From sequence record CP128686.1: 64,000 bases of DNA; one strand, written 5' to 3'. The stretch comes from a plasmid. This document shows, one piece after another, positions 15,001 through 21,000 of the stretch. Position numbers: made by a program. How positions within the stretch are numbered: position 1 is the stretch's first letter; the number at the start of each line of letters is the position of its first letter.

Positions 15001-18000
15001 CCATTAACTCTGAAACTATATGACTGGTGGGTGCTTTGCATTTCGAATAGTTACGCATGGAATTGTTCAACAAAGGATATTTTAATTCCTTATTTTTTAC
15101 AAAACTTAAGTCCTAACCACCTAGATATTGGCGTTGGTACTGGTTATTATCTCACTAAAATCCCTGCTCACTATAATATATCCCTCATGGATCTTAACCC
15201 TGCCAGCTTGAAAGCTGCATCGGCAAGAGTAGGGGAAGATAGAATACACTATAAAGTTAGGCATGATGTATTTGAATCTTACCCAGAGGAACTTCATGGA
15301 AAATTTGATTCCATATCAATGTATTACCTCATCCATTGTCTACCAGGAACAATGGAAGATAAAAGAATTGTCATAAAAAACGCGAAGGCCGCCTTAACTA
15401 AAGGTGGAATACTTTACGGAGCAACCATACTTGGTGATAAGGTAAGGCATAATAGTTTTGCGTTAAAACTGTTGCAAATTTATAACAAAAAAGGTATTTT
15501 TTCTAATTTTAGTGATTCAGAAGAAGAACTAAAAAAAATGCTTTCTCATTATTTTAAAAATATTGATGTCATTGTGAAAGGTGCTGTCGCAATGTTCTCT
15601 GCGCATGAAAAAAAATAGCTATTTATCATTTTTTCCTGGATTTATCTTTTTTAAAAAACACCTTGTGAACTGATCCCATAGTTTATATTAAGCGACTAAC
15701 AGGGCTTGGGTTCGGTCCTCTACCGGACTCAGGCCTTTTTGTTTTATTCTTTCATGGTTGTAATAGTGGATGTACTCATCTATAGCCATGCGCAACTAGC
15801 TGATATTCTTATGTTCCTTCAGGTAAAAACATTCAATCTTTAGCGTACCGAAGAAGCTTTCCATTACTGCATTGTCGTGACATTTTCTCTTTCTTGACAT
15901 GCTCTGTTTCAGGCCGCTGCCCTTAAGTCGCTTCTGATAATACGCCATCTGGTAGTGCATCTAATTAGTAGAACATGTATTTTTCAATGAAGGCCCCGAT
16001 GACTTTTTCATGCAGCTCAACAGAGCGTGAGAAACAGACGGTCGGCGAGCCAGGCGTTTGATTCGGGTTCTCAGCGTCAGATTGTTTCGCTCAATGCGCT
16101 GAGTAGAGATTTTGCCGGTCAGATGCTTATCCTTCGGCACCTCTCTGGCGTAACTTCCCAGTCATCGCTGGTTATTATGCTGATATTAAACGGTGTGAGC
16201 AGAGCCAGCAGCGCACTGCAGGTTGCATCGGTCCGTGGCCCAAAAGTATAGGCCAGCACACCACCTGTTTTCGTGTTGTACGCGTACCAGAGCCAGTGCT
16301 ACCGGGCTTTGCTGCCGACCTCCATTGCTCGTGGAGTTCGCAGATGAGCGCCACATCGGCATGAGCAACCGGAGATGTGGTTACTCGTCGTGGCGCGAGT
16401 TTTTTAAAGTGCGAATAACGGTGTTAATGCCGATTTTGAGTGTCCTTGCGGTATCACAGACGCCGGCTCCGTTGAATGCCATTTCGGTAATTTTCTCTTT
16501 GACGCCGTGCTTGCGTGCTTCATAAGTATAAGTGAGCAGAAACACGCGGTAGCAATCGCGGCAGCGAAACCGGTCACGGCCTTTAGGGCTCTGCCTGTGG
16601 CGGAAAACTTGGTCAGACTGACAACGGGGGCAATGAACGGTAACGCTGGTCATGAACAAACCTCAAAAGCACGCATCATACATCAATTCAATTAATTAGA
16701 GGCATTGATCTCCTCCCTGAAAACAGTGCCGTCTCCTCGCCTCGTGAGCTCACACCAACAGAAGCACCGGCAGAAATAAGAATCCCTGGTTTCTCCTGAT
16801 ACTATTTAATAATTTCTGACAGGGCCTGACCTGCTTTCTGAATATAAACTGGTTGCGAGACCTCACCCAGCTGATTGGCAACCATCCGGGTTTCATAATG
16901 ACTGGCAGTTAATACCAGAGCTGGCCCGTGAATACAGGACAATTGTTCAACTACTGCCTTTAACCATTGACCTGAAAATATCTGTTCTTTCGGGTCATCG
17001 AACACCTTTGGAAAATCAGCACCGGCGATGGTCAGCTTCATTGAGCCATAGACGTCTGGGGAGAATATTTTCCTGATTGAAATCGTATCGCTGGTTAACC
17101 CCAGAGCTTTACATAACCACTCCATTCCGGTCTCTGGGGTACTGGTAATAGAGAGGGTAGCCGACGTCAGTAACGCACTACGCCACTGAGTGCAGTATCT
17201 GCCCACATTCATCCCGATAAACGGGTTTACAGCGATCAGGGCTGGTTCACGACGTTTATTGGAAACGCCTACGCCCTTTTGCCCCCGGACAATCCGAGCA
17301 TATCCCTGCTGTAGATACAGTCAAAGAAAGCTTTCCGGGCCGCTTCATTTTTTATTTTCCGCCCTACCTTTGATAAGGCGTTAAAGCTATTGTCAAACAA
17401 GGCAACCGCTGCAGGCGTACTACAAAAATGCAGATCGCCCGCTATCGAAGTCACGTCGTTCATTAACTGGTCGATGACATGCACGCCATTACGTGGAATA
17501 TGTTCATTGAACGCACTAGTCAACTCTCTGAGGTTGAAGCGCCGCTGTTTCCAGACCTCAAGCATATCTACAAAAATGTCTGCCTCATCAATAATGAGGT
17601 ACATATTTTCTTTGTCACCGAGGATGCGGTGATTACACATACAGTCGACCATTACCATCGCATGGGTCGTAACAATAAAGTTAGCACTGAGAGCATTCAG
17701 GCGAATATCATCAATGTCCTGTATATCATCCCAGATGGAGTAGGTGACCATCTCTGGCGTGATCTGCGCTGGCAGTTCACCATACTCTTCTTCAAACTCA
17801 ACCAGAGGTTTTGACCAGTTAGCGAGTTTTTCAAGGACCTTAACCGTATCCAGATCGGTAAATTCGTCCATGAGTAACAGTCCACGTACTTTCTCCAGGG
17901 ATACGTAATTTACTTTCCCCATAAGCCGGGAAAAAGTAACTTTTATGCCGCATTGTTCAGCTATCTGTTCAAGGAGAGGACGATCGCTTCTGAATATCTG

Positions 18001-21000
18001 GTGCATCAGTGCATGAGAATTCGTGGCAATCACAAATTTTGCCTCAGGGTTTTTCAGCAGAATCAGAAGCGCCGGTACCAGATAGCCCAGCGTTTTTCCT
18101 ACACCTGTTTCAGCACTAATCAGTGCAACTTTATGATCCTGAGTCAGTGCACCAGCTGCAGCCTCGATATAATCCTGTTGGACCTTACGTAACGACAATC
18201 CGGCAGACTCAAATACCGCTGATGTATTCATGACTACTGCCCCGCCAGATGCATGAAACCGCAACCAAATACGCGTTTAGGGCCTACGCCATAAACGATT
18301 CCCACTTCAGCTTCCTGTTGATTGCTGATTATGGCGGTACCCTGTACCGTGAATACGGGTAGCGTAAAACCACGTCCAGCATTTCCTTTGTCGATATGGA
18401 CGAATTTCGGGCCACTGACGACGATTTGACCGGGTTTAAACCCAGCCTTCGCTAATTTGGTGAGGGCCAACTGATAACTAGCCTCTTCAGATGGAGCAAA
18501 CTGGCGTCGGCCACGGCCTTCTGACTTTGTTCCTTTATGAAAGATGGCCATTAACGTAATGAACTTGATTTCATGGCCCTCAGAGAGAATAAGCTCTCTT
18601 TTTTTCTCCCCAGGCAACTCCAGAGCTGTAGCTGTGCGGACCAGGAGTAACGAATCATCCCCGGTACCGGGAAAAATTTTAAAAGAGTACGGCAGCTTCT
18701 CTCCCTTACGTTCCTGCATGAAAAAATCCAGGTGCTGGTGGATCTGGTAAACACTTGTGTGACGGATACGCAACCGAAACGCATTATCGTAGTAAATCAT
18801 GGTTATACCTTTTTCAAGAGGTGCAAAATGCTCAGGCGTTGATGGGGATCAGTCGGCAGAAGCAGCAGTAACGGAATGAGGTTGTTTTTCTTAAACTCAT
18901 TCGAGGCAGCTTCAGGAGTTATCCGCGAATAGGCCAGCAGGGTTACTGTTCTGATAAAGATGTCTATCTCTTTCTTGAAGTAGTTTTTTATTTCCTGATG
19001 GAGTTCTTTAGCCTTTTTTAAATCCAGCATGTAAAGGACTTCGTTCTGCCGGGTCAGTAGTTGATCGGCACAGGTATAAATTGCGTCGGCACTCAGACTG
19101 ACCCGCAGTGAGCGAACAAGCTCGTAGGTTTTCACGCCGAAGTTTTGAATATAAATCAGCGGGAATTTCAGTTCGGTGTTAAACAGGTATTCCAGGTGCT
19201 GACCGCTGGTGGCCGTGATGACTTCTACGTGATCGAAAAAATGCTCAGGTAGTTTATTGACCACTCCCTGAGGGGCTAAAAGAACAGAAGAATTGTCTTC
19301 AACGTTAATAACAGCCCCAACACCAGACCACATGCCAAATTTCTGGCCGGTTGTTGGTTTTTTGGGGTTCTCCACGCCCATCAGTTCTGGAGCAGAAACA
19401 AAAAATGTCTGGCAAGGACGGCAATGCACAACACGTTCCCTGTAGGCGTTGACCAGCTCGAAGCCTACCCCGTCGAACTCTGAGGGCGCTCTGCCGCAGC
19501 ATGAGCAATTTCGTTGCACAGGCACAGGCTCACTCATATAGGGCAATAAAATACTCGTCAGAGCGCTATATACTGACTCTACAGGATGATTCAAAGCTCC
19601 CCCTCCCCTAAAATAAGCTATGCCATTTTGATGGCAAATTAGTTAAGTGTCCCTGCTCACAGATACAAGGAATTTTCACCCGCCAGCTTAATAAATAATG
19701 GTGAAATTTCCTTAGGCAAATTTAACAGAAGCTTCTGATACAAAGACTCATCTTCCGGACGCCCGGTCAAAATCACTTTCCTTCCCGAGGCAAGTGATTG
19801 AAGAACGTATTTCAACATATTTCGCACATCAAAAAGAACGACATCATCAATGATGATATCTTTATTTGATAAACTCTGAATAAATTCCTCGTTTGCAATC
19901 GGCTCATCTGGTGAAATAAATAAACCATCAATTAATGCACGCTTCGCCAGAAGGGTTTTCCCTGACCCAGAAGGCCCTATTATAACGACAATAAGGTTAG
20001 TATCTTTTTCTGAAAAGAAACTCAACACCTTATTGAGACATTTTTCATTTTGATTGTTATTGAATTTCAAATCATGACTCCTTTCCAAGAAGATGCCCTC
20101 ACCTGTGGTTATTCCGTTAATTCAAGGGATGAAGTGTACCAGTTAACCTATGTCCTAATGCAAGACGGTTTTTGTTTCCGAATTACCCTTGTCGTTGCCA
20201 TCACCAGACATCTCTTGCAGGTCTTGATGGCCCATCAGATTCACAAACATAGCACGGTAACCTACTGGCAAGCGTGAAAGTAAATCAATGCACAATTCAT
20301 GGTCTGACGGTTGTCCGATGACCAGAACCTTATGGCCAGAAGCATGCACAGCCAGAATACACTCCAGGACTTTGTCTGCATCAAAACGGAAAATGTCATC
20401 AATCACTACATCAAAACGGCTTTGTTGAATAAATAAGATTTCGTGCGAACGACCCTGTAGCTGGCTGGATTTTCAGGCAATACGCACGCTTTCTGGCATC
20501 CCAGCCTTTGTCATCCTGTTCAACGCACGCACCATGGCCATAGCTTCCGCTACCTGACCATCGTAGTCACGCAGCGTCAGTGAATCTCCCAACAACTGCT
20601 TCATTCTGTACATTGCCGTTTCCGCTATCGAGCGACGGTTATATTCCGTTGTCCATTTCCACCGTGCATTGCTTCCGCTCAGCCGCTGATTAGCAACGGC
20701 ACGGTTGCGGTCTGCGTACTCACCGGGCCAGTAACCTGCTCCTTTTCGGGGAGGAATAAGCGCGCTGATTTTTTTGCGGCGCATTTCATCGTGACAAAGC
20801 CGTGTATCGTAAGCCCCGTCTGCCGCGGCTGCCCTGATTTTTCTGTGAGTCTGCCGGATAAGGCCCGGGAAGGCTTCTGAGTCCGTGACGTTATTCAGCG
20901 ACAGGTCTGCACAGACAACTTCATGTGTGTTGCTGTCAACAGCAAGATGCAACTTTCGCCAGATACGACGGCGCTCTTTGCCGTGCTTTCTGACTTTCCA

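Follow-up and report, generated by a model that had tools for sequence, protein, structure and literature searches.

A probable relic of a type IV-A3 CRISPR-Cas locus on a Klebsiella virulence plasmid

Are CRISPR-associated (cas) genes that stand beside no CRISPR array a small defence system in their own right, or what remains of a larger one? This question is raised by a locus on a plasmid (sequence record CP128686.1), of which we analyzed a stretch of 64,000 nucleotides (the 64-kb window; coordinates refer to it unless another plasmid is named). A preliminary description had reported a Zn-finger protein, a Cas6e-family protein, and a DinG helicase there, and had proposed either a type IV-A remnant on the virulence plasmid of a hypervirulent Klebsiella or an uncharacterised minimal Cas6e-DinG variant. 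We are highly confident that the locus is a broken relic of a CRISPR-Cas system of type IV-A3 on a hypervirulent Klebsiella virulence plasmid, without interference activity of its own. The first proposal was thus borne out by matches to IV-A3-specific models, synteny with six intact loci, and the presence of iroN, peg-344, and rmpADC in the flanks. These flanking genes, together with 99.95% identity to plasmid pKC-Pl-HB1 over 62.6 kb, identify the host as a pLVPK-like IncHI1B/IncFIB virulence plasmid.

Identity of the cas genes

The locus contains the following features (aa, amino acids).

16736..19594, minus strand: type IV-A3 cas remnant (csf1, cas6, and dinG pseudogene)
18803..19594, minus strand: csf1 (Cas8-like Zn-finger large subunit), full length, 263 aa
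18234..18800, minus strand: cas6 (Csf5, Cas6e-like), full length, 188 aa
16736..18231, minus strand: dinG/csf4 (CasDinG) pseudogene, codons 1-499 of 624 (PADLOC, tblastn, and PDB)

From 16736 to 20417, every gene lies on the minus strand, and the order of transcription is a P-loop gene fragment, a 137-aa P-loop gene, csf1, cas6, and the broken dinG. PADLOC identified the three reported proteins, at the place described, as Csf1/Cas8, Cas6_0_IVA3, and Csf4_0_IVA, and the profile searches that had been suggested as a check gave significant matches to Cas6e (PF08798), IV-A3 Cas6, Csf1, and Csf4 models. The genes are tightly coupled as described; their junctions are 2-nt gaps (TAA-cc-ATG and TAG-tc-ATG), however, and not ATGA and 2-bp overlaps.

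The csf1 product matched Csf1gr8 (E 8e-150) and Csf1_2_IVA3 (E 1e-121), and it matched the Csf1 of Klebsiella pneumoniae IV-A3 (PDB 8rc2_G; E 6e-176) over its full length with 3 of 263 residues differing; the single derived change in csf1 is S206F. The cas6 product, a predicted endoribonuclease, matched Cas6_0_IVA3 at E 5e-82 (residues 1-187 of 189 model positions), against E 1e-9 for the generic Cas6e models of PADLOC. It also passed the Pfam Cas6e family PF08798 (33.3 bits, cut-off 25), residues 72-186 corresponding to profile positions 93-222 of 223. The glycine-rich loop GVGPKRVFGCG lies inside this stretch, and the N-terminal YQIHQ motif, putative site of the catalytic histidine and identical in the orthologue of one intact locus (L002), lies outside it. 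The product is 98.9% identical to L002 Cas6 (tblastn), and the single derived amino-acid change in cas6 is S83L. A PDB search with the cas6 product gave no match, which is consistent with the structure paper, where Cas6 could not be modelled (PMC11519345).

At this locus, RefSeq annotates Cas6/Cse3/CasE and a DEAD/DEAH helicase. No NCBIfam model matches csf1 or IV-A3 cas6, which explains the labels "hypothetical protein" and "type I-E Cas6"; the missing match is no argument against membership of these two genes in IV-A3.

Two dinG open reading frames, 17269..18264 and 16802..17212, matched PADLOC Csf4_0_IVA (E 2e-123 and 2e-49, respectively), and alignment with intact loci placed the start at the ATG at 18231, not at the TTG at 18264. 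The possibility that the helicase belongs with housekeeping DinG or YoaA, raised in the preliminary description, was not borne out: in the PDB search, its N-terminal part matched the IV-A3 DinG chain 8s35_M at E 8e-209 versus E 3.5e-11 for E. coli DinG (6fwr), and its NCBIfam equivalog scores were far under the cut-offs (DinG, 83.3 bits versus 789; YoaA, 70.8 versus 680).

By megablast, 823 plasmids of PLSDB share DNA of the remnant, 790 of them from Klebsiella; identity is >=99% in about half of the plasmids and 95-99% in about half. We compared the window with six intact loci (L002, L003, and L006-L009), each carried by a conjugative MOBH/MPF_F plasmid of type IncFIB and/or IncHI1B. The order in all six is csf1, cas6, dinG (624 aa), cas5 (235 aa), cas7 (343 aa), and array; in the arrays, 29-nt repeats (coding strand, GTATTCCCCCCGCATGCGGGGGTTATCGG) recur with a period of 60-61 nt, separated by spacers of about 32 nt. 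The window DNA at 16736..20417 (3.68 kb) is collinear with these loci and 96.4-98.9% identical to them; this is the synteny comparison that had been proposed as a check. Collinearity breaks at 16735/16736, beside an IS1-like insertion sequence (IS), and at 20417/20418, beside an IS903-like element; the intact loci run onward into cas5, cas7, and an array. A comparison of 57 spacers from the six intact arrays with the window yielded chance seeds of at most 13 nt and one imperfect 15-nt match.

Missing effector genes and a broken helicase

In an intact system, Cas6 cuts the array transcript, and Csf1 (Cas8), Cas5, about six Cas7, and Cas6 assemble on the CRISPR RNA (crRNA); this complex binds a matching plasmid target beside a protospacer adjacent motif and recruits DinG, which silences transcription. 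The composition of the IV-A3 complex (Cas8, Cas6, Cas5, and multiple Cas7 on the crRNA) and the need for DinG in silencing within genes have been reported (bioRxiv 10.1101/2023.06.23.546257; PMC11519345). Cryo-electron microscopy showed that the C-terminal tail of IV-A3 DinG inserts between Cas8 and Cas5 and docks the helicase (PMC11519345).

Much of this machinery is absent here. In the 64-kb window, tblastn found no match to cas7 (Csf2) at E<=1 and none to cas5 (Csf3) anywhere, and the IV-A3 29-nt repeat had 0 copies at <=3 mismatches. There were no CRISPR-like spaced direct repeats in the window beyond an unrelated 8-bp tandem, and an Rfam scan of it matched no family, CRISPR-DR included. 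The description of the window as lacking Cas7, Cas5, and a repeat array therefore holds. As a proxy for the rest of the plasmid, we used the complete 196-kb pKC-Pl-HB1 (label L011), which, aside from the 99.95% identity, differs from the window by an 864-bp indel and what looks like an IS-mediated inversion. The further search for CRISPR repeats and csf2/csf3 that had been recommended was run on this proxy, and it found neither cas5 nor cas7 (tblastn E<=1e-3) and no IV-A3 repeat at <=6 mismatches. Because Cas7, Cas5, and crRNA are absent, no effector complex should be able to form, and the locus itself would thus perform no interference.

The helicase gene is also disabled. An intact DinG, aligned to the window by tblastn, matched in two frames, with aa 1-320 in one and aa 317-499 in the other, and the gene carries these lesions.

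17282..17286, minus strand: lesion 1, a 1-bp deletion (G6 to G5), from alignment with the six intact loci
16802..16804, minus strand: lesion 2, nonsense Q477* (CAG to TAG) in the restored frame, a derived C to T at 16804 relative to the six intact loci
16736, minus strand: lesion 3, homology ends after codon 499 of 624; the last 125 codons are gone, C-terminal tail included

The frameshift falls at codon 316, before helicase motif III (TSAT), and leads to a stop at 17269..17271; the G6 run is kept in five of the six intact loci, and L007 has a T at one position. A frameshift before motif III and a truncation beside the IS1-like element had been described correctly; Q477* is a third lesion. The end of the locus had been put at 16802, whereas the dinG remnant runs 66 nt further, to 16736. 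Even with its frame repaired, the gene would be without its docking element, because it is the C-terminal tail that docks the helicase (PMC11519345). Full-length CasDinG has HD2 and the C-terminal tail; the window dinG does not encode such a protein.

A deletion in a homopolymer (G5 versus G6) is at a typical site of sequencing error, and the frameshift and stop might accordingly be assembly errors in a dinG that is merely truncated. We give this explanation almost no credence: the identical sequence (100%) occurs in dozens of independently sequenced plasmids, the resulting 320-aa product is in many RefSeq records as WP_004902373.1, and without the frameshift and stop, dinG would still be 125 codons short and cas5, cas7, and the array would still be missing.

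Two breaks and the history of the locus

The downstream break adjoins two decayed mobile elements.

15961..16735, minus strand: decayed IS1-family element at the dinG break (three-frame translation)
15796..15960: C-terminal fragment of an IS3-family transposase, adjoining the outer end of the IS1-family element

Homology to intact IV-A3 loci ends exactly at 16736, beside the IS1-family element, in which insA (16381..16659) is intact, whereas to read through insB takes at least three frameshifts. We take the element to be of the IS1 family from its presumed likeness to the InsA/InsB and inverted repeats of E. coli IS1. With the IS3-family fragment, it makes 15796..16735 an IS graveyard. The IS1-dinG junction is present in 400 PLSDB records, pLVPK (NC_005249) among them, so the downstream break is old and shared.

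The shared junction also bears on the second proposal, namely, an uncharacterised minimal system of Cas6e and DinG (plus the Zn-finger protein) working without a Cas7/Cas5 backbone or array. The gene content within the window, taken by itself, agrees with such a system. However, three lesions disable the helicase, the DNA matches standard five-gene loci at 97-99% identity with homology stopping abruptly at an IS element, and no independent lineage of this composition was seen, all 400 copies having one junction. We consider a minimal variant extremely improbable and reject it in favor of a recent truncation of the standard five-gene system.

What replaced the lost half was visible when L002 was aligned with pKC-Pl-HB1. 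Two blocks are collinear: L002 1551-3144 (RES/Xre toxin-antitoxin genes and the umuC 3' end) equals pKC-Pl-HB1 20477-22067, and L002 7932-12474 equals pKC-Pl-HB1 43692-48237. Between them, L002 (3145..7931, 4.8 kb) has the remainder of umuC together with umuD, the array, cas7, cas5, and the 3' end of dinG, and pKC-Pl-HB1 (22067..43692, about 21.6 kb) has fecIRA, iroBCDN, peg-344, rmpADC, and a methyltransferase gene; this latter block has its left boundary inside umuC, outside the window. Judged from this alignment, the virulence block of fec, iro, peg-344, and rmpADC sits at the site of the lost CRISPR half, and it may have arrived in one single replacement event. Under the relic reading, the downstream half would have been lost when the block of about 21.6 kb (fecIRA, iroBCDN, peg-344, and rmpADC), presumably bounded by the IS1-family element that has since decayed, took the place of umuDC, the array, cas7, cas5, and the 3' end of dinG.

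Within the window, 12000..15700 is markedly AT-rich (28-38% GC versus 44-54% in the CRISPR remnant and IS elements); homology to L001 places rmpA/D/C and an S-adenosylmethionine (SAM) methyltransferase there.

The upstream side has a different structure, as follows.

19595..19656, minus strand: spacer upstream of csf1, 62 bp, retained unchanged, with a G-rich ribosome-binding site
19657..20070, minus strand: intact gene for a small P-loop protein of 137 aa with the Walker A motif GPSGSGKT (95.6% to its L002 orthologue by tblastn)
20155..20417, minus strand: second small P-loop gene, 3' fragment, aa 77-162 of 162 (tblastn 100% to L002 hyp163 aa 77-162)
20418..21474, minus strand: IS903-like (IS5-family) element whose terminal inverted repeats are GGCTTTGTTGAATAAAT and whose transposase lies at 20473..21441

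The csf1 spacer contains a promoter-like site (TTGCCA-16-TATTTT at 19637..19610). A promoter and terminator scan of the region gave a count of sites not above the shuffled expectation, and this one marks a position only, with no evidence of function or expression. All six intact loci have the 137-aa P-loop gene directly upstream of csf1; in two of them, IS4321 interrupts the 162-aa gene, the one cut by the IS903-like element in the window. The two proteins (19657..20417; in L002, 10854..11839) are paralogous (32% identical), with Walker A and a DD Walker-B-like motif; searches of Pfam and PDB gave generic P-loop matches only, and the pair may be accessory to IV-A3 or may merely neighbour it in the backbone. 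The IS903-like element is 87% identical to an annotated IS903B copy in L005, and its inverted repeats are, we presume, comparable to those of IS903.

In the preliminary description, this element cut the 5' side of the cas operon. What it truncates is the second P-loop gene; it leaves csf1, the 62-bp spacer, and the first P-loop gene whole. At the junction, the window is without 864 bp relative to L001 and pKC-type plasmids. The same IS903-like copy with its right flank adjoins position 20417 here, 18856 in plasmids of the L004 type, which have lost nearly all of csf1, and 17176 in pLVPK, which has lost csf1, cas6, and most of dinG. Counts in PLSDB, which are upper bounds since nearby pieces were joined in counting, reached 343 records for the csf1-deleted junction (L004 type), 68 for the fullest version (L001 type), and 28 for the pLVPK-like junction. 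The window's own 20417/20418 junction occurred in 0 of 72,556 PLSDB plasmids; it is a private 864-bp deletion variant. Upstream erosion has thus been recurrent, in nested deletions anchored at the IS903-like element, which argues against selection to keep csf1 or cas6. We propose that the upstream side is being worn down by one-sided deletions from this anchor.

To the right of the element, about 42 kb of the window (20417..62621) is inverted relative to pKC-Pl-HB1 138369..96155. Since pKC-Pl-HB1 has four identical copies of the IS903-like element (WP_004225014.1) in both orientations, the pair look like isomers that differ by an IS-mediated inversion.

If the system is broken, why are csf1 and cas6 intact? 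The remnant branch carries 19 derived substitutions in 3.68 kb, distributed as follows (non-synonymous:synonymous).

dinG, 5:2
cas6, 1:3
csf1, 1:0
P-loop genes, 2:5

These are too few to separate neutrality from constraint. At the rate of disabling lesions in dinG (2 per 1.5 kb), csf1 and cas6 together should have received about 1.8, and by our estimate the chance of none, P(0), is about 0.16; the intact pair therefore needs no special explanation. Their survival would reflect the short time elapsed rather than selection.

Several points weigh against reading the locus as an inert relic. The absence of cas5, cas7, and the array outside the window is extrapolated from a near-identical proxy, pKC-Pl-HB1. 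In addition, csf1 and cas6 are perfectly intact, and the spacer upstream of csf1 is preserved with its promoter-like site, so expression and residual activity may persist. Finally, csf1 and cas6 together show two non-synonymous to three synonymous changes and dinG five to two, numbers too small to show relaxed selection.

These points lead to the alternative that the relic is partly domesticated, with the csf1-cas6 pair expressed and acting in trans. It could process crRNAs, or sequester them, whether these come from a co-resident IV-A3 plasmid or from the chromosomal type I-E system, or it could act as a dominant negative that keeps IV-A3 silencing off the virulence plasmid. In favor of this, neither gene is broken, both share about 99% identity with functional orthologues, the spacer upstream of csf1 has been kept, and the Cas6 is Cas6e-like; moreover, IV-A3 has been reported to draw on type I-E adaptation functions in trans (bioRxiv 10.1101/2023.06.23.546257; PMC11519345). 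However, csf1 has been lost in most remnant plasmids (up to 343 of about 400 records), pLVPK is without cas6 too, intactness is within chance at the above P(0), and synonymous change shows no excess. We regard domestication as very unlikely. A more specific form, in which the pair, kept in a minority of pLVPK-like plasmids (the present one among them), is a co-opted anti-defence or accessory module acting in trans, seems very unlikely to us; it could be a decoy or dominant negative against IV-A3 silencing by competing conjugative plasmids, or an extra Cas6e-like nuclease on type I-E or foreign IV-A3 pre-crRNA.

Elsewhere in the window, we noted a perfect tandem of seven ATGGAAAT octamers at 26546..26601, upstream, by about 230 bp, of a class I SAM-dependent methyltransferase gene on the minus strand (approximately 25613..26320, placed by homology to L004); the tandem could be a slippage-prone promoter spacer. 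A second rmpA-like sequence at 45897..46630 is 83% identical to the rmpA of the same plasmid family and is presumably rmpA2.

Meaning and relation to known systems

Partial IV-A3 loci and the gene labels are already known, and the remnant adds incrementally to the known history of these plasmids without representing a new kind of system. As an ancestry marker, it points to one IncHI1B/IncFIB backbone as the ancestor of both the pLVPK-type virulence plasmids and the conjugative resistance plasmids bearing IV-A3. The nested deletions (20417, 18856, and 17176) could serve as simple lineage markers in typing virulence plasmids, and CRISPR typers and annotators that meet "Cas6e" and "DEAD/DEAH helicase" on such plasmids should not call them CRISPR-positive. 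The practical value is otherwise limited, and no new mechanistic CRISPR-Cas question is opened. In the literature, we found no explicit account of the remnant on pLVPK-type plasmids or of the iro/rmpA block as its replacement; the sole pertinent passage was a general one on partial loci (Newire et al., 2020).

Good descriptions exist of type IV-A3 on Klebsiella IncHI1B/IncFIB plasmids (PMC7434947; PMC6965323; bioRxiv 10.1101/2023.06.23.546257; PMC11519345). Among these reports, Newire et al. (2020) listed partial IV-A3 loci ("cas8-like, cas6, and dinG"), associated with IS elements, on IncHI1B/IncFIB(Mar) plasmids (PMC7434947). The window resembles them in gene composition and IS association, but their examples A-D name no virulence plasmids and may or may not share the IS1-dinG junction.

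The closest relatives are the IV-A3 systems of Klebsiella IncHI1B/IncFIB conjugative plasmids (p1530 and pNDM-MAR; PDB 8rc2 and 8s35-8s37), which have orthologous csf1, cas6, and dinG (97-99% in protein or DNA) in the same order and share with the window the 2-nt intergenic gaps, the small P-loop genes upstream, and the plasmid backbone type. In contrast, the window is without cas5, cas7, the leader, and the array, its dinG is frameshifted, interrupted by a nonsense codon, and minus the last 125 codons, and its host is a non-conjugative virulence plasmid. The window Cas6 resembles type I-E Cas6e (CasE/Cse3, PF08798) in passing the gathering score with its glycine-rich loop matched, but it falls in the IV-A3 subgroup and lies outside any type I-E operon. 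Similarly, the helicase shares with housekeeping DinG and YoaA a superfamily 2 XPD-like core, a Walker A motif (GVGKT), and a DEAD box, whereas it scores far under the cut-offs of those families and is much closer to CasDinG.

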